NCBI RefSeq assembly: GCF_003334315.1
Contig: NZ_QOWR01000023.1
Direction: 5' to 3' (one strand)
Source: Escherichia coli
GTDB taxonomy: Bacteria; Pseudomonadota; Gammaproteobacteria; Enterobacterales; Enterobacteriaceae
DNA: 64,000 nucleotides
Below the pieces are notes generated by a model. It saw only the letters and a program-made list of their open reading frames with translations. It was not told the DNA's origin and did no database searches. The position numbers and the translations under genes are program-made. Positions 1 through 36,081 of the stretch are shown in pieces; position 1 is the first letter of the stretch; each line of letters opens with the position of its first letter.

Positions 1-149
1 GGTTGAGAAGCGGTGTAAGTGAACTGCAGTTGCCATGTTTTACGGCAGTGAGAGCAGAGATAGCGCTGATGTCCGGCAGTGCTTTTGCCGTTACGCACCA
101 CCCCGTCAGTAGCTGAACAGGAGGGACAGCTGATAGAAACAGAAGCCAC
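1..149 (-). CDS. insA: insA (IS1 transposition protein InsA), 5' part only, GTG start at 149 reading leftwards
   Basis: Minus-strand translation from GTG at 147-149 gives [23 protein letters not shown]..., the InsA N-terminus; ORF is cut by the window edge. Confidence 0.7.
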
Positions 150-204
150 TGGAGCACCTCAAAAACACCATCATACACTAAATCAGTAAGTTGGCAGCAT
201 CACC
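1..204 (-). mobile_element. IS1 left end (terminal inverted repeat plus 5' part of insA), truncated by the window edge; element continues to the left of coordinate 1
   Basis: Sequence 1-204 is the reverse complement of the canonical IS1 left end; the 23-bp terminal repeat GGTGATGCTGCCAACTTACTGAT (minus strand) ends at 204; one mismatch to the IS1 copy I remember. Confidence 0.85.
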
Positions 205-536
205 CGTTCATTTTCTGAGCCTGTAAAACATGTGGTGATATAGTCTGAGAGCATAAAAGTTGAGATTCTGTGTATCAAGTCCTGTCTTGGCACCGAATGA
301 ATATTGCTTACGAAGCCCCTTCATGCTTTCCTTGAGAACAATAATTTTATCTTTATGTATTTTTTATAATGATGTCAGATGATTGAAATGCTAAATTATA
401 TCTGAATCAACTTTTCCTTTGCTAAAGGTATAGAAATAACTGCAAGGCTGTATTTTGTAATTGCCAATTTAAAAATGTCAATTTGTTTTTAATTATGTTT
501 TTGTAATAAGTTTGAAGACACAAAAAAATAATATAA

Positions 537-570
537 TAACAAAAATCCTCCAGCCTTGTAGGCCAGAGGA
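537..570 (-). terminator. Putative rho-independent terminator downstream of the integrase gene
   Basis: Minus-strand hairpin CCTCTGGCC-tacaa-GGCTGGAGG (two G-U pairs) followed by ATTTTTGTT, 45 bp after the int stop. Confidence 0.4.
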
Positions 571-615
571 TAAAATACTTAATTGAGGAAAACATCAGGG
601 AAAAGTATTTCTGAC

Positions 616-1800
616 TTAACTTTCCCGGCTGGAGAGTGAATCAATGTAATCAGCGTACCATTGCATCATTTCACGGCGGCCATCGAGATACAGGGCATGA
701 TTATAGGTACCCCTGATGGAATTTTTATCCACATGAGCTAACTGCATTTCAATCCAGGCGGAGTTAAAGCCTTGTTCATGCAGAATTGTACTCATGGTGT
801 GTCTGAAACCATGCCCTGTGAGTCTTCCCTTATATCCAAGTAATTCAATTACTTGGTTAATGCTTTCCTTACTAATTGGTTTGCGGGGATCATTTCTACC
901 GATAAAGACTAGGGGATGATGTTTTGAGATTGGTTCAAGCTGCTTAAATAGCATAATAACCTGCTCAGAGAGCGGCACAATATGAGGTCGCTTCATCTTC
1001 ATTACTTCTGCCGGGATCTCCCACAATTTTGTCTCAAAATCGATATCTTCCCAGCGTGCAAAACGCAGTTCTTGTGTTCGTACGCCGGTTAACATAATGA
1101 TCTGAGTAGCTGTCTTAGTGATTATACTTCCGGTATAACCCGCCAGATCGTTGAGGAAGTGGGGAAGTTCATTAGCAGTAAGAAAGGGAAAATGTACTTT
1201 TTTCGGTGTAGCTAAAGCACTGGCAAGATCGGGGGCTGGGTTATAGTCTGCCCGGCCAGTAACAATTGCATAGCGGAACACCTCACCACAGCGCTGGCGT
1301 ACCTTGCGCATTTTCTCCAGAGCTCCACGTTTTTCCATTTTACGCAGTGCTTCCAGTAACTCCATTGGTTTGATTTCGGCAATAGGGCGCTTGCCAATGT
1401 AGGGAAAAATGTCTTTTTCAAAGGTATCAATGATTTCATCACGATAGCGTAATGACCACCGATCGGCTTTTGACTGGTGCCATTCGCGAGCAATAGCCTC
1501 GAACGTATTTTTCAGACTTATTTGCTGCGCGATTTTTTCTTCCTTTTTTGCCTCCCCTGGATCGCCTCCAGCAGCGAGGAGTTTCCTGGCTTCACTGCGT
1601 TTCTCGCGAGCATCGGCTAGCGTTACATCGGGGTATACGCCAATAGAAAGCATCTTTTCTTTACCAGCAAAGCGGTACTTCATGCGCCAGTATTTAGAAC
1701 CATTAGTGTTAATCAGTAGATACATACCGCCGCCATCAGCAAGCTTATAGGGTTTGTCTTTGGGTTTTGCGGTTTTCACTTTGATATCGGTTAATGCCAT
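616..1800 (-). CDS. int: P4-family tyrosine integrase (phage/island integrase), full length 394 aa
   Basis: ORF track 394 aa; N-terminus MALTDIKVKTAKPKDKPYKLADGGGMYL and C-terminal HGFRHT and LAHVDKNSIRGTYNHALY motifs (HxxR and catalytic Tyr) typical of P4-like integrases; sits directly next to the 3' end of a tRNA gene. Confidence 0.95.
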   Translation of the reverse strand: MALTDIKVKTAKPKDKPYKLADGGGMYLLINTNGSKYWRMKYRFAGKEKMLSIGVYPDVTLADAREKRSEARKLLAAGGDPGEAKKEEKIAQQISLKNTFEAIAREWHQSKADRWSLRYRDEIIDTFEKDIFPYIGKRPIAEIKPMELLEALRKMEKRGALEKMRKVRQRCGEVFRYAIVTGRADYNPAPDLASALATPKKVHFPFLTANELPHFLNDLAGYTGSIITKTATQIIMLTGVRTQELRFARWEDIDFETKLWEIPAEVMKMKRPHIVPLSEQVIMLFKQLEPISKHHPLVFIGRNDPRKPISKESINQVIELLGYKGRLTGHGFRHTMSTILHEQGFNSAWIEMQLAHVDKNSIRGTYNHALYLDGRREMMQWYADYIDSLSSRES

Positions 1801-2099: not shown

Positions 2100-2194
2100 T
2101 GGCGGAAGATCACAGGAGTCGAACCTGCCCGGGACCGCTGGCGGCCCCAACTGGATTTGAAGTCCAGCCGCCTCACCGGAGACGACGATCTTCC
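2100..2194 (-). tRNA. selC: tRNA-Sec (selenocysteine tRNA, selC), 95 nt including CCA
   Basis: Minus-strand sequence GGAAGATCGTCGTCTCCGGTGAGGCGGCTGGACTTCAAATCCAGTTGGGGCCGCCAGCGGTCCCGGGCAGGTTCGACTCCTGTGATCTTCCGCCA matches E. coli selC as I remember it; long extra arm and UCA anticodon. Confidence 0.97.
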
Positions 2195-6197: not shown

Positions 6198-6249
6198 TCT
6201 ATTGATGGAATGCCGGGTACGTCTGAGTCGTACCCGGCGAGATTGATGT

Positions 6250-7959
6250 TTACCGCACCGGCTCCGTCGATGTAACTTCACCGCTGGAAACGATGCCAGC
6301 ATTCATGGTTTGAGTCACTTGCTGCTTTGCGGCGTTCACGGCATGCAATTGCCCGCTAACCGTAGGTTTCAACGGGACATTGGCCTGAATATCGCCACTG
6401 GCGGTAAGCTGAATATTGCCGTCGCCAGTCAACGGTAATTCAGGCCATCCCCACTGTTGCAAAATATTCACCGGCACACCGCGTCCATTCAGGCTGATAT
6501 GTGTCTGACGTTGTGGCGTTTGTGAAACACTGGCGGTGGCTTCCAGAATGCCTTTTTCAGTAAATGCACTCAGTTCGCTGATATTCACCGTGCTGCTGTT
6601 GGCGGTCAGCGCCAGCGACGGGCGACGAACATCAACACGATTGAATGTCGCGGCGGCGGCATTCAGATTCGCCGAGCCACTCCAGACGCCCCATTTATGA
6701 TCGGTAACCAGCGTCAGGTTGGCACCGTAACCATCGAGCGCGGTGAGCTGCCACGGGAAGTCAGGGTCGATATCAATGATCAGATTGCGGCTGGCGCTAA
6801 ATCTCTTCAGTTGCAGGCTGTTTAACCAACCGGGTGTCGTTTCCATCCACAACTGTTGCCAGTTTTTCGGCAAGGTATATTCCAGCCCGGCAATTGCCGC
6901 ATCATCAAGGATCAACGTTTTCCCGTCACGCAGCCAGTTCCCTGACGTTCTGACCATACCCCCTTCCCAGCGGCTGGTGAACTGGCGCAGCGCTACGCCC
7001 TGCGGGGAAAATTCCGTGTTTATAATCGGGTCAAATAAATGCAGCGAACCATAAATGAACTCGCTAGCGTTCATCGACAGTTTGCCTTCCTGTGTCTGCC
7101 AGTCATCTTTACTGAAGGTCATGTTGCGCAAGCTGAGATCGAGGTCGGTCACCGCCCAGTCCGGACCTTGCAAACGAGCATCGATCACTTCCAGGCGACC
7201 AATCTGCAACGACGGGACAGAGCGTAATGGCGCAAAGAAGTCGGTTAGCGATTTTTCGCTTTGTAGACGTATATCCGCCATGCGCAGGTTTTCCACTTGC
7301 CAGCTGCCGTCGGCGTTACGCTGCGCGTTTCCGGTTAATGTCCCGCGGGCGATGTCGGCACCCAGGTTAGTCAGCGTAACGCGATCGTTATCAATACTGC
7401 CTTCAATCAGTACATTGGTGGCAGGAACATCATTGAGCGAAAGCGATCCGGCACTAAACTGAATCTGCGCCTTCGTACCCAGCACTTTACCGGCTTTTGG
7501 TGACCACGGAACTACGCCGCCATTTACCCGCTGCGCGCTCAGTTTCCATTCGCTATTCGGGCTATTAAACGCCATATCACGCAGTTGCAGACGATCGGCT
7601 TTGAACGGTAGCGGCGCGGTCTGGTCGGTGAGATTCAGCGTCCCGTTTTCCAGCAGGATGGTATCGACATGGCGTGGTTCGGTCAGTTGCCGACTGCTTA
7701 GCGCAATGTCGACACTTTTGGCCACCAGGGTCGCGGGCTGGCCATCACGACCAAACGTGACGTTCTCCAGCACGATATGAGATGGCGCGGAAAAACGGTG
7801 ATCCATCGCCCCGAAGGCCAGATGATAGTCGCTATTCTCGGAAACCCATGCGCTGATATGTTCTGCTCCCCAGCGGGTTTGCAGAAGAAAATAGAGGCCA
7901 GCGATCGCCACTAACAGAGCGATGAGAATGTAGAGAAGCAGCTTCCCAATAAATTTCAT
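6250..7959 (-). CDS. yicH: AsmA-family outer-membrane assembly protein YicH
   Basis: ORF track 577 aa; N-terminal signal/anchor MKFIGKLLLYILIALLVAIAGLYFLL; conserved position. Confidence 0.88.
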   Translation of the reverse strand: MKFIGKLLLYILIALLVAIAGLYFLLQTRWGAEHISAWVSENSDYHLAFGAMDHRFSAPSHIVLENVTFGRDGQPATLVAKSVDIALSSRQLTEPRHVDTILLENGTLNLTDQTAPLPFKADRLQLRDMAFNSPNSEWKLSAQRVNGGVVPWSPKAGKVLGTKAQIQFSAGSLSLNDVPATNVLIEGSIDNDRVTLTNLGADIARGTLTGNAQRNADGSWQVENLRMADIRLQSEKSLTDFFAPLRSVPSLQIGRLEVIDARLQGPDWAVTDLDLSLRNMTFSKDDWQTQEGKLSMNASEFIYGSLHLFDPIINTEFSPQGVALRQFTSRWEGGMVRTSGNWLRDGKTLILDDAAIAGLEYTLPKNWQQLWMETTPGWLNSLQLKRFSASRNLIIDIDPDFPWQLTALDGYGANLTLVTDHKWGVWSGSANLNAAAATFNRVDVRRPSLALTANSSTVNISELSAFTEKGILEATASVSQTPQRQTHISLNGRGVPVNILQQWGWPELPLTGDGNIQLTASGDIQANVPLKPTVSGQLHAVNAAKQQVTQTMNAGIVSSGEVTSTEPVR

Positions 7960-29878: not shown

Positions 29879-30204
29879 AGTAAATAGCTGACTTATGGAT
29901 GTGCTGGGGATTCTATGTATTTAGCTGTGGCTTTACCATTACTTTTCCCGTTTTTGACTTAAATAGCAATTTACCCGCCAATTCTTGCTGAACATCTATA
30001 CTTTTTTTGTATTTTTATGCGATTCATTGATTTCTGCTGTACGTGCAGGAAGGAATCGCAGAGCAACAGTGAAAGAATATGGTTGCTAATGATTTTATTT
30101 GATTGATTTCTTTATTGAAAATCAACAATGTGCTTAAAAATCATTCGGGTCGGATTGCCGCGAAAGAAGTGATACACTAGCGCGTCAATATCAGTGCGGT
30201 ATCA

Positions 30205-30245
30205 GTATTCAGGTAGCTGTTGAGCCTGGGGCGGTAGCGTGCTTT
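30205..30245 (+). promoter_or_regulatory. JUMPstart element with ops site (GGCGGTAGCGTG at about 30229-30240) in the waaQ operon leader; RfaH-dependent antitermination
   Basis: Exact ops consensus GGCGGTAGCGTG about 50 bp upstream of waaQ. Confidence 0.8.
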
Positions 30246-30290: not shown

Positions 30291-31349
30291 GTGGATAAGC
30301 CATTTCGAAGAATTTTGCTCATTAAGATGCGTTTTCATGGGGATATGTTATTAACTACTCCCGTCATTAGTTCGCTGAAAAAAAATTACCCTGACGCAAA
30401 AATCGATGTGCTGCTTTATCAGGACACCATCCCGATCCTGTCTGAAAATCCAGAGATTAACGCGCTCTACGGCATAAAAAATAAAAAAGCAAAAGCCTCA
30501 GAAAAAATTGCCAACTTTTTTCATCTCATCAAGGTATTACGTGCCAATAAGTATGACCTTATCGTCAATCTCACCGATCAATGGATGGTTGCTATACTGG
30601 TTCGCTTATTAAATGCCCGTGTGAAAATTTCCCAGGATTATCATCATCGGCAGTCTGCTTTTTGGCGTAAAAGTTTCACCCATTTGGTGCCGTTGCAGGG
30701 TGGAAATGTGGTGGAAAGTAACTTATCCGTGCTGACCCCATTGGGAGTTGATTCGTTGGTGAAGCAGACAACCATGAGTTACCCGCCTGCAAGCTGGAAA
30801 CGTATGCGTCGCGAACTTGATCACGCTGGTGTTGGACAAAATTATGTGGTTATCCAACCTACGGCGCGGCAAATCTTCAAATGCTGGGACAACGCCAAGT
30901 TTTCCGCTGTGATTGATGCCTTACATGCTCGTGGTTATGAAGTTGTTCTGACGTCCGGCCCAGATAAAGACGATCTGGCCTGCGTCAATGAAATTGCGCA
31001 GGGATGCCAGACGCCACCAGTAACGGCGCTGGCTGGAAAGGTGACCTTCCCGGAACTTGGTGCGTTAATCGATCATGCGCAGCTGTTTATTGGCGTTGAT
31101 TCCGCACCGGCGCATATTGCCGCTGCAGTTAATACGCCGCTGATATCGCTGTTTGGTGCGACAGACCATATTTTCTGGCGTCCCTGGTCAAATAACATGA
31201 TTCAATTCTGGGCGGGAGATTACCGGGAAATGCCAACGCGCGATCAGCGTGACCGAAATGAGATGTATCTTTCGGTTATTCCGGCGGCAGATGTCATTGC
31301 TGCTGTCGATAAATTACTGCCCTCCTCCACGACAGGTACGTCGTTATGA
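30291..31349 (+). CDS. waaQ: LPS heptosyltransferase III WaaQ (GT9); the true start is probably the ATG at 30327 (MRFHGDMLL)
   Basis: ORF track; GT9 heptosyltransferase; first gene after the JUMPstart; stop overlaps the waaG start (ATGA). Confidence 0.9.
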   Translation: MDKPFRRILLIKMRFHGDMLLTTPVISSLKKNYPDAKIDVLLYQDTIPILSENPEINALYGIKNKKAKASEKIANFFHLIKVLRANKYDLIVNLTDQWMVAILVRLLNARVKISQDYHHRQSAFWRKSFTHLVPLQGGNVVESNLSVLTPLGVDSLVKQTTMSYPPASWKRMRRELDHAGVGQNYVVIQPTARQIFKCWDNAKFSAVIDALHARGYEVVLTSGPDKDDLACVNEIAQGCQTPPVTALAGKVTFPELGALIDHAQLFIGVDSAPAHIAAAVNTPLISLFGATDHIFWRPWSNNMIQFWAGDYREMPTRDQRDRNEMYLSVIPAADVIAAVDKLLPSSTTGTSL

Positions 31350-32470: not shown

Positions 32471-33260
32471 ACTTAAAGAGCCGTTTGCCACGTTATGGCG
32501 CGGCAAAGATCCTTTTGAGGAAGTTAAAACCTTGCAGGGTGAGGTATTTCGTGAACTGGAAACTCGCCGTACTCTGCGCTTTGAAATGGCGGGCAAAAGC
32601 TATTTTCTCAAATGGCATCGCGGCACGACCCTGAAAGAGGTAATCAAAAATTTACTCTCATTGCGGATGCCAGTATTAGGCGCTGACCGCGAATGGAATG
32701 CGATTCATCGACTGCGGGATGTCGGCGTTGATACTATGTATGGGGTGGCATTCGGCGAAAAAGGCATGAATCCGCTGACCAGAACCTCGTTTATTATTAC
32801 CGAAGATCTGACACCAACCATAAGTCTGGAAGATTACTGTGCTGACTGGGCGACCAACCCACCAGATGTTCGCGTAAAGCGTATGCTTATTAAGCGTGTC
32901 GCGACGATGGTGCGCGATATGCATGCTGCGGGCATTAATCACCGTGACTGTTATATCTGTCATTTCCTGCTGCACTTGCCTTTTTCCGGTAAGGAAGAGG
33001 AGTTAAAAATTTCGGTAATTGACCTGCACCGGGCGCAGCTTCGCACGCGCGTTCCACGTCGTTGGCGCGATAAAGATCTTATTGGACTTTATTTTTCTTC
33101 GATGAATATTGGCCTGACTCAGCGGGATATCTGGCGGTTTATGAAGGTGTATTTTGCCGCTCCGCTTAAAGACATTCTCAAGCAGGAACAAGGACTGCTG
33201 TTGCAAGCAGAAGCAAAAGCCACAAAAATCAGGGAAAGAACGATTCGAAAATCGTTGTAA
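32463..33260 (+). CDS. waaP: LPS core heptose(I) kinase WaaP
   Basis: ORF track; [21 protein letters not shown]; kinase motif [10 protein letters not shown]. Confidence 0.93.
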
Positions 33261-33302
33261 CCCGTAACTTATTTTTGCCAAAATTTTGGATACAGAATAA
33301 AT

Positions 33303-34310
33303 ATGTCTCAACTCAATGATAGTGACATCATCCTTTTTGAGTATAATTTTCATTATCAAAATATAAGATCTAAAAATACTCTTGATATAGCATTTGGTAT
33401 TGACAGAAATTTTCTTTTTGGATGTGGTGTAGCCATCGCATCTATTCTATTAAACAATAGAGAAATCTCTTGTGAATTTCATGTTTTCACAGATTATATC
33501 AGTGATAAAGACAAATTATATTTTTCTGATTTAGCAAAACAATATAATTCAAGAATTAATATTTATGTTATCAATTGTGATAAGCTGAAGTCATTACCAA
33601 GCACGAAAAACTGGACTTACGCAACATATTTTCGATTTATAATTGCAGATTATTTCTATCATAAACATGAAAAAATACTATATCTTGATGCAGATATTGC
33701 TTGCAAGGGTAGTATTAAAGAACTCTTAGATTATCAATTTTCTACTAATGAAATTGCCGCAGTTGTAGCTGAAAGAGATGTTGAATGGTGGCAAAATCGA
33801 GCCTCGGTATTAACTACACCACAGTTAGCTTCTGGATATTTCAATGCTGGTTTTTTACTGATAAATATTGATGAGTGGAATCTAAATAACATTTCGTCAA
33901 AAGCTATTGAAATGTTGCGTGACCCAGATTGGGTAAGTAAAATCACCCACCTTGATCAAGATGTACTGAATGTATTATTGAATGGTAAAGTGAAGTTTAT
34001 TTCGGAGAAATATAATACCCGATATAGTATTAACTATGAATTAAAAGACAAAGTTGATAATCCAGTCAATGATGACACCGTGTTTATACACTATGTGGGA
34101 CCTACAAAACCCTGGCATGAGTGGGCTGACTATCCGGTGTCACGTAGTTTTTTGATCGCCAAAGCAGCTTCTCCGTGGAGTAAAGAAGATTTACTTAAAC
34201 CTGTAAATAGCAATCAGTATCGGTATTGTGCAAAACATAAATTTAAACAAAAGCATTATATGGCAGGCATTTTTAATTATTTAAAGTATTATAAAGAAAA
34301 ATGCTTCTAA
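33303..34310 (+). CDS. waaI: outer-core GT8 glycosyltransferase, R3-type WaaI (UDP-galactose:(glucosyl)LPS alpha-1,3-galactosyltransferase)
   Basis: ORF track 335 aa; GT8 DxD motif LYLDADIA; AT-rich; position after waaP as in the R3 locus. Confidence 0.75.
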   Translation: MSQLNDSDIILFEYNFHYQNIRSKNTLDIAFGIDRNFLFGCGVAIASILLNNREISCEFHVFTDYISDKDKLYFSDLAKQYNSRINIYVINCDKLKSLPSTKNWTYATYFRFIIADYFYHKHEKILYLDADIACKGSIKELLDYQFSTNEIAAVVAERDVEWWQNRASVLTTPQLASGYFNAGFLLINIDEWNLNNISSKAIEMLRDPDWVSKITHLDQDVLNVLLNGKVKFISEKYNTRYSINYELKDKVDNPVNDDTVFIHYVGPTKPWHEWADYPVSRSFLIAKAASPWSKEDLLKPVNSNQYRYCAKHKFKQKHYMAGIFNYLKYYKEKCF

Positions 34311-34335
34311 AGATTTAAGGTTAAAATAATTCATT

Positions 34336-35043
34336 ATGATATATAATAAAACGATAAATGGGTTGAAAGTTTTCATAAAAGATAATGATCCCTTTTATGA
34401 GCAAGTTCTAAATGACTTTTTAACTTGCAGGGTTAAAACATTAAAAGTTTTTCGTTCTATTGATGATACTAAAGTCATTCTTATTGACACTGCTCGTGGA
34501 CCTCTTGTACTTAAAGTTTATGCGCCAAAGCATAAAATGACCGAACGTTTCTTAAAATCTTGCATAAAAAAAGATTATTATGAAAATTTAATTTATCAAA
34601 CCGATCGGGTACGTGGTGAAGGCATCCAATCAATTAATGACTATTTTTTGCTAGCTGAACGTAAAACATTAAATTTCGCTCATTATTATATTATGCTCAT
34701 TGAGTATATTGAAGGTGTCGGGTTAAATGAGTATTTGGAAATTTCTGAAGATCTGAAGGATCAATTATCAGAATCGATAAAAGAGTTGCATCAGCATGGA
34801 ATGGTGTCTGGCGATCCTCATAAAGGAAATTTTATAGTATCCGAAAAAGGTTTAAGACTAATTGACCTTTCAGGTAAAAAAACAACCGCTGTTTTAAAAG
34901 CAAAAGATCGCATTGATCTTGAACGGCACTATAATATAAAAAATGAATTGAAAGACTTTGGCTATACATATCTTATATTCAAAAAGAAAATTAAAAAAGT
35001 AATCAGGGATGTAAAAGTCAAACTAGGATTGAAGAGCAAATAA
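34336..35043 (+). CDS. waaY: LPS core heptose(II) kinase WaaY
   Basis: ORF track 235 aa; Kdo/WaaP-family kinase fold (GDPHKGNF); AT-rich. Confidence 0.8.
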   Translation: MIYNKTINGLKVFIKDNDPFYEQVLNDFLTCRVKTLKVFRSIDDTKVILIDTARGPLVLKVYAPKHKMTERFLKSCIKKDYYENLIYQTDRVRGEGIQSINDYFLLAERKTLNFAHYYIMLIEYIEGVGLNEYLEISEDLKDQLSESIKELHQHGMVSGDPHKGNFIVSEKGLRLIDLSGKKTTAVLKAKDRIDLERHYNIKNELKDFGYTYLIFKKKIKKVIRDVKVKLGLKSK

Positions 35044-35067
35044 TGATTATGATGAAGGGTAATTAAA

Positions 35068-36081
35068 TTGGATTTTAAACATCTTACTCAATTTAAAGAT
35101 ATAATTGAACTGGACAAGCGCCCCGTTAAACTTGATGAACGGGAAACGTTTAATGTCTCATGGGGTATTGATGAGAACTACCAGGTTGGGGCTGCGATTT
35201 CAATTGCTTCAATTCTTGAAAATAATAAACAAAACAAATTTACCTTTCACATAATCGCTGATTACTTAGACAAAGAGTATATTGAATTATTATCACAATT
35301 AGCAACGAAGTATCAAACAGTAATTAAATTATATCATATTGATTCTGAGCCATTGAAGGCGCTACCTCAATCAAATATCTGGCCAGTATCTATTTATTAT
35401 CGTTTGCTTTCATTTGATTATTTTTCTGCGCGATTGGATTCATTATTATATCTTGATGCTGATATCGTCTGTAAGGGTTCATTGAACGAGTTAATAGCAT
35501 TAGAGTTTAAAGATGAATATGGGGCAGTGGTAATTGATGTAGATGCTATGCAAAGTAAAAGCGCTGAGCGTTTGTGTAATGAGGATTTTAACGGTAGCTA
35601 TTTTAACTCTGGTGTAATGTATATTAATTTACGGGAATGGTTAAAACAAAGACTAACGGAAAAATTCTTTGATCTATTATCAGATGAGTCAATTATAAAA
35701 AAATTAAAGTACCCGGATCAAGATATTTTAAACTTAATGTTTCTACATCATGCTAAAATATTACCGAGAAAATATAATTGTATTTATACTATAAAGTCAG
35801 AATTTGAAGAAAAAAATAGTGAATATTACACCCGGTTTATTAATGATGACACTGTCTTCATACATTATACTGGTATAACTAAGCCATGGCATGATTGGGC
35901 GAACTACGCCTCTGCAGATTATTTTCGTAATATTTATAATATATCACCATGGAGAAATATACCTTATAAAAAAGCTGTTAAAAAACATGAGTACAAAGAA
36001 AAATATAAACACTTGCTTTACCAGAAAAAATTTCTCGATGGTGTTTTTACAGCAATTAAATATAATGTTATGAAAGGTTAA
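35068..36081 (+). CDS. waaJ: outer-core GT8 glycosyltransferase, R3-type WaaJ (alpha-1,2-glucosyltransferase); TTG start
   Basis: ORF track 337 aa; GT8 motif LLYLDADIVCKG; paralogous to the preceding GT8 gene. Confidence 0.72.
   Translation: MDFKHLTQFKDIIELDKRPVKLDERETFNVSWGIDENYQVGAAISIASILENNKQNKFTFHIIADYLDKEYIELLSQLATKYQTVIKLYHIDSEPLKALPQSNIWPVSIYYRLLSFDYFSARLDSLLYLDADIVCKGSLNELIALEFKDEYGAVVIDVDAMQSKSAERLCNEDFNGSYFNSGVMYINLREWLKQRLTEKFFDLLSDESIIKKLKYPDQDILNLMFLHHAKILPRKYNCIYTIKSEFEEKNSEYYTRFINDDTVFIHYTGITKPWHDWANYASADYFRNIYNISPWRNIPYKKAVKKHEYKEKYKHLLYQKKFLDGVFTAIKYNVMKG

Follow-up and report, generated by a model that had tools for sequence, protein, structure and literature searches.

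The 411-bp spacer at positions 205 to 615 of the E. coli window (the whole 64-kb stretch of DNA that was analyzed) is bounded by the left inverted repeat of an IS1 element at 182 to 204 and by the stop codon of the integrase gene (int) of an island at selC. Its organization is very probably explained by a conserved module of int, spacer and a TPR gene that was cut by IS1 and then suffered IS1-mediated loss. The features of this end of the window are as follows.

1 to 204, minus strand: left end of IS1, truncated where the window begins (exact inverted-repeat match, InsA translation, NCBIfam IS1 models)
205 to 211, minus strand: remnant of the TPR gene, ATG (211 to 209) plus 4 nt, fused to IS1 (alignment with BL21)
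212 to 249, minus strand: putative leader (5' UTR) of the lost TPR gene (six-variant alignment, column counts)
250 to 278, minus strand: sigma-70 promoter-like site of the lost TPR gene (consensus scan; presumptive function)
279 to 534, no strand: AT-rich, poorly conserved middle of the spacer (identity profile of 0.4 to 0.6)
535 to 571, minus strand: predicted intrinsic terminator of int, hairpin at 571 to 545 plus T-tract (terminator scan, RNA fold)
572 to 615, minus strand: 3' untranslated tail from the int stop codon (618 to 616) to the terminator (sequence and ORF list)
616 to 1800, minus strand: P4-type tyrosine integrase gene of the selC island (ORF and integrase-domain model)
2100 to 2194, minus strand: selC (tRNA-Sec), the integration site of the island (ARAGORN and Rfam RF01852)

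The left inverted repeat, GGTGATGCTGCCAACTTACTGAT (∼23 bp), was matched exactly on the minus strand, with zero matches expected by chance, and was the sole IS1 end in the window. The insA start codon (GTG) is located at 149 and reads leftwards, ∼55 nt inside the left end of IS1. Translation of positions 3 to 149 (minus strand) yielded the InsA N-terminus, which passed the cutoff of the IS1/IS1595 zinc-binding domain model NF050000 (42.8 bits), and the IS1 part of the window was 99% identical to annotated IS1A and IS1B copies. On the other side of the spacer, the int ORF (394 amino acids) strongly matched the integrase-domain model NF007246. As in a tRNA-linked island, this tyrosine integrase gene (616 to 1800) adjoins the 3' side of a tRNA gene, selC (2100 to 2194), on the same strand; yicJ and then yicI follow beyond selC.

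With 30.9% G+C, the spacer was far more AT-rich than the whole window (49.8%) and int (45.1%), and its segment from 300 to 545 fell to 24.4%. Just 2% of all 411-bp segments were equally AT-rich, and all of these except the spacer itself were found at 33 to 36 kb. The longest ORF inside the spacer starting with ATG, GTG or TTG comprised 57 amino acids, and the longest stop-free run 63 codons. The initial annotation, which had described an AT-rich noncoding stretch extending from the end of IS1 to the stop codon of int and devoid of ORFs of 60 amino acids or more, was thus accurate, and none of the small ORFs is conserved (see below). We consider it highly probable that the spacer is ordinary intergenic DNA which led from the island integrase gene to the next island gene and was cut by IS1. 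The sole other region of the window as AT-rich as the spacer (33100 to 36000, with a minimum of 25.8% G+C over 411 bp) lies within ORFs downstream of a JUMPstart element at 30203 to 30241 (plus strand; Rfam RF01707, 55 bits), where a run of ORFs on the same strand begins at 30291, and probably consists of LPS core glycosyltransferase genes. The placement of this JUMPstart element looks ordinary, being as expected ahead of an LPS core (waa) operon.

In the intact form of the locus, represented by BL21, CFT073, EC50 and ECCNB12-2, the spacer is followed on the int strand by a 1,044-bp gene coding for a TPR protein of 347 amino acids. This intact junction of int, spacer and TPR gene was present in ∼500 complete E. 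coli genomes, BL21 and CFT073 among them. Alignment with BL21 placed the ATG of the TPR gene at 211 to 209 of the window, where ATGAACG is retained at 211 to 205 with IS1 directly abutting. IS1 is therefore positioned 7 nt into the gene, and the fusion reads ATG AAC GGG TGA (Met-Asn-Gly-stop). The 5' sequence of the TPR gene was absent genome-wide from the sampled genomes with the IS1 junction, in which a BL21 probe matched the spacer alone. The initial annotation had suspected that IS1 truncated or removed a gene that once followed int, and had proposed an alignment against other islands to see what was interrupted; both the remnant and the intact gene in relatives bore this out, and the alignment identified the interrupted gene as that of the 347-amino-acid TPR protein. 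This protein showed weak Pfam matches to TPR/ANAPC3, NCBIfam matches that were all far below their cutoffs, and no match in PADLOC, on which grounds a functional assignment was dropped. The module of int, spacer and TPR gene was also observed at a tRNA-Phe gene beside yqgA and speC (loci L012 and L014), with a different integrase allele, which indicates that the TPR gene is a conserved companion of the integrase family and not the cargo of one island.

The anatomy of the spacer was derived from six spacer/island variants aligned on the transcribed (minus) strand. Two conserved blocks, with pairwise identities of 0.79 to 0.84 (572 to 533) and 0.74 to 1.0 (285 to 207), enclosed a variable middle (∼280 to 535) with pairwise identities of 0.4 to 0.6, which was largely deleted in one pheV variant. 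Within the block next to int, a candidate int terminator is formed by a 12-bp GC-rich hairpin at 571 to 545 with six G-C pairs, followed by TTTTTGTTATT and located 44 nt past the int stop codon. Its predicted fold reached −18.4 kcal/mol (z = −2.66) on the minus strand, compared to −14.5 kcal/mol on the plus strand; the hairpin is more stable on the minus strand because two of its pairs are G·U on that strand only. All six variants retained it, and 89% of the cells were paired versus 29 to 67% when the partner was slid. The changes within the hairpin, U·G/G·U to C-G/G-C, one compensatory and three one-sided, were not above those in column shuffles of these six sequences. We read the hairpin and the T-tract as the putative int terminator. 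With Rho-independent terminators it shares the GC-rich hairpin, the T-tract and the greater stability on the int strand; it differs from them in that its T-tract is interrupted.

The block next to IS1 contains a promoter-like site at 278 to 250 (TTGATA, 17 nt, TATGCT) that matches the consensus at 9 of 12 positions and is located 38 nt upstream of the TPR ATG; the scan that detected it returned 5 sites, compared to 5.4 in shuffled sequence. Hexamers and 17-nt spacing were maintained in six of six variants with a single T>C change, an excess of conservation over the 17 nt separating the hexamers that was not significant (Fisher P = 0.23). The 17 nt directly upstream of the TPR ATG (TTTTACAGGCTCAGAAA) were invariant in the six island variants, and the bin from 226 to 207 showed 100% pairwise identity, while the leader fold was no better than shuffles (z = +0.55). 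From the aligned sequences, we read the block from 285 to 207 as the presumptive promoter and leader of the lost TPR gene, now aimed into insA. The spacer would accordingly be more than mere leftover DNA, in that it appears to hold the int terminator as well as an orphaned promoter-like site and leader.

Since the window begins inside IS1 and the far IS1 end is located outside it, the test for a target duplication was carried out on relatives, and the DNA beyond IS1 in the source genome was likewise deduced from relatives with 99.9% identity. In these, the layout was truncated setC, IS1, a 3,498-bp autotransporter gene, IS1, spacer, int and selC. The far IS1 end adjoined the adhesin gene aatA or its flank in every junction relative examined, and the last ∼400 bp of the autotransporter gene together with 133 bp of 3' flank were 99.8% identical to the copy of BL21(DE3). 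The aatA gene, encoding an autotransporter adhesin of APEC, has been described as a 3,498-bp ORF that is flanked by IS elements, including IS1, and whose homologues in BL21 and REL606 are 99% identical (PMC2944236). The gene in the relatives resembles it as a 3,498-bp autotransporter ORF adjoining the far IS1 end, but is located outside the window; in the B-type island, aatA lies ∼10 kb beyond the TPR gene and is oriented the other way.

The right flank of IS1 in the relatives was cgttcattt. The left flank was caaaatctg, 133 bp after the aatA stop codon, in the HS30-1/L015 type (51 genomes) and tgatgtgtc, 6 bp after that stop codon, in the 64EVA type. A 9-bp target duplication, which the initial annotation had proposed to look for at the other end of the element, was thus absent from the examined relatives with the identical junction, the closest ones among them, and in L015, whose two IS1 copies provide four flanks, no match among these was seen in either orientation. 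Differing flanks argue against a simple insertion, but not against the element being IS1. Together, the missing target duplication, the presence of aatA at the far end and the absence of the TPR gene indicate deletion or rearrangement and not simple insertion. Two further constellations were considered and rejected. Insertion of IS1-aatA-IS1 as a composite transposon was not supported, as cggagtgcc and cgttcattt, which bound it on the outside, do not repeat each other and the DNA on its two sides is noncontiguous. A duplication in inverted orientation, as from one-step inversion-type intramolecular transposition, was dismissed because the four L015 flanks do not match as reverse complements; a later deletion would erase such a duplication.

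The aatA gene resides in an IS1-flanked invertible segment that was observed in both orientations (L015, 6566 to 12283, versus L017), with setC truncated by the second IS1. ET76 and 2017.04.03CC each matched the window at 99.9% identity but carried the aatA segment, enclosed by its pair of inverted IS1 copies, in opposite orientations, in line with the earlier statement that IS1 can remodel the island by deletions or inversions. In these respects the locus resembles the adjacent deletions and inversions that IS1 causes on islands of E. coli and Shigella: the position of one IS1 end is constant while the other side is variable, the 9-bp duplication is lacking, and a segment between inverted IS1 copies occurs in both orientations. 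There was no difference in kind from IS1-mediated deletions and inversions by intramolecular transposition or IS1-IS1 recombination, the pathway followed here being deduced. In the closest relatives of the window, IS1 matched at least 40 places per chromosome. The aatA 3' end plus flank matched 247 places on plasmids and chromosomes, and HS30-1 carried one chromosomal and one plasmid copy. Because aatA occurs on both, IS1-mediated exchange between plasmid and chromosome is a possible route to the junction.

The selC site is also occupied by other islands, such as LEE and SHI-2. Islands with a P4-type integrase (tia/leo type, espI) have the same insertion site as the present one (selC, adjoining yicJ) and an int of the same family, and int plus ∼100 bp including the terminator is common to islands with other cargo. 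The island of the window lineage differs from these other selC islands in that, in relatives, it is reduced to int, spacer, IS1, aatA, IS1 and truncated setC (∼7 kb); the body of the island lies outside the window. The second copy of the tRNA 3' end, expected as a direct repeat at the opposite island border, has probably been lost, since the far side in relatives is IS1 in truncated setC.

The spacer was detected in 877 of 5,426 complete E. coli genomes, in every case on the chromosome, and 158 of the 5,426 carried the identical window-type IS1 junction. The closest relatives were 99.9% identical to the window over 11.85 kb, with no mismatch over 2 kb besides a 7-bp gap; where 205 to 2200 was free of mismatches apart from this gap, the int product was WP_001218900.1. 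The same Int is encoded by the TPR-intact strain ECCNB12-2, which differed from the window by 5 mismatches and the 7-bp gap over 2 kb. Aligned spacers with the IS1 junction (HS30-1, L015) equaled that of the window save for the 7-bp gap, with 98.3% identity throughout among the top matches listed. Diverged copies of int, spacer and TPR gene (83 to 92% identity) were present in selC islands of the tia/leo type and also at the tRNA-Phe site adjoining yqgA, which implies that the module predates the IS1 event. These comparisons indicate that the IS1-junction form is derived from the intact form.

The gap corresponds to a 7-bp deletion in the window between 358 and 359 (GAATCTC, plus strand) relative to all 877 spacer-bearing complete E. 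coli genomes. Located ∼150 nt upstream of the lost TPR ATG, beside a locally conserved ATAAAGATAAA block, it was the sole feature private to the window, the best full-length matches being otherwise identical, and may reflect either a genuine mutation of this genome or an error of assembly. At its yicI-yicH junction (6198 to 6250), the window lacked the ∼7-kb PTS-fructose/aldolase block of CFT073, strain 104 and 14EC020. These three strains carry the same selC int as the window, two of them also with the IS1 junction. The sharing of this int by strains with and without the PTS block indicates that one island form is present in different chromosomal backgrounds.

The spacer was also interrupted at other points, giving the following junctions.

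Between 204 and 205: window-type IS1, left repeat toward the spacer, 158 complete E. coli genomes
Between 513 and 514: IS1 in the opposite orientation, 230 complete E. coli genomes, including O104:H4
At ∼326: IS3-family element, espI island, 16 complete E. coli genomes
At ∼395: IS3-family element, 1 complete E. coli genome
At ∼560: break in NCTC9064, partial spacer match

IS elements have thus struck the spacer on at least four separate occasions in E. coli. All of the other junction types kept int and the terminator, except for the break at ∼560. The insertions at ∼326, ∼395 and between 513 and 514 fall into the poorly conserved middle of the spacer. In WCHEC020031 (L009), which represents the junction between 513 and 514, IS1 is located 102 bp past the int stop codon and is followed by unrelated cargo; the junction recurs in O104:H4 and 228 others.

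Taken together, we propose the following scenario. The core of the island would originally have consisted of a conserved module on the minus strand beside the tRNA gene, comprising the P4-type int, the spacer and the TPR gene. In the order of transcription, the spacer would include the 3' tail of int with its Rho-independent terminator, ∼250 bp of fast-evolving AT-rich DNA, and the promoter-like site and leader of the TPR gene, followed by the ATG and 4 nt. IS1 would then have transposed such that its left inverted repeat landed 7 nt into the TPR gene, and the remainder of this gene together with the cargo behind it would subsequently have been lost through adjacent deletion, inversion and/or IS1-IS1 recombination, leaving IS1 joined to aatA in relatives. 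At present, the spacer would serve to end int transcription, and its orphaned promoter-like site, if active, would read into insA. The comparisons directly show where the junction lies, that a remnant of the TPR gene persists while the rest is gone, that relatives lack a target duplication, and how the junction is distributed; it is the activities of terminator and promoter and the sequence of IS1 events that we infer in this scenario. Among the relatives examined, no intermediate with a target duplication was found that would fix the order and type of these events.

Could the TPR gene simply continue past IS1, flanked by a 9-bp duplication and with nothing else lost? The far IS1 end lies beyond the window and leaves room for such an insertion. 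However, all examined genomes with the identical junction, including relatives with no mismatch over 2 kb (7-bp gap aside), carried aatA or its flank at the far side without a matching 9-mer, and the TPR 5' sequence was missing from the sampled junction genomes, which makes a simple insertion highly improbable. That the arrangement of int, spacer and IS1 is ancestral, with the TPR gene as a later addition in other lineages, is in our view extremely improbable. By its own terms, the initial annotation would be contradicted if the int-to-IS1 arrangement were both ancestral and widespread and lacked no gene. The form is indeed widespread (158 genomes, in backgrounds that carry or lack the PTS block at the yicI-yicH junction), but it represents a derived state that has lost a gene: the TPR start codon, 4 nt more and the invariant leader are still found at the junction, and the copies of the module at selC and tRNA-Phe have diverged to 83 to 92% identity, whereas the aligned IS1-junction spacers are near identical. 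An unannotated small protein or small RNA encoded by the spacer itself is very unlikely. The ORFs of 57, 40 and 38 amino acids, a second, weaker promoter-like site from the consensus scan (481 to 452, minus strand) and the locally conserved block ATAAAGATAAA near 340 to 358 could be taken as hints of such a gene. Yet the frames of all three ORFs, the longest in the spacer, are broken by stop codons or frameshifts in related spacers, and RefSeq lists no separate coding sequence between int and the TPR gene in BL21, CFT073 and EC50. Moreover, an Rfam search (E ≤ 1) returned no family match for the spacer, with tRNA-Sec as the sole match, the fold of the leader did not exceed shuffles, and the middle is the least conserved part and the one largely deleted in the pheV variant.

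A further reading concerns why the spacer was hit repeatedly. Possibly, though we regard it with some doubt, the AT-rich spacer is a preferred site of IS landing and exchange, at which cargo is swapped onto a constant anchor of int and terminator, and does not merely tolerate insertions. At least five break points within 411 bp, with different cargo behind each, would fit such a preference, as would the general preference of IS1 for AT-rich targets. On the other hand, insertions into int or selC would be selected against, and survivorship alone could yield the cluster. Each junction type may also represent one old event spread by descent or island transfer. An extension of this idea, in which the orphaned TPR promoter-like site raises transposase expression from this IS1 copy and thereby contributes to the expansion of IS1 in the closest relatives while the spacer acts as a preferred docking and exchange site that keeps int and terminator, seems unlikely to us.

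The reading of a module cut by IS1, with subsequent IS1-mediated loss, explains the decapitated look of this selC island and names the missing gene. The case is one of ordinary IS1-mediated island decay and has little import beyond annotation. The IS1 left repeat followed by CGTTCATTT is a possible marker for the lineage or the island type, and the spacer provides a small, concrete case of IS elements reshuffling cargo beside a conserved integrase anchor.
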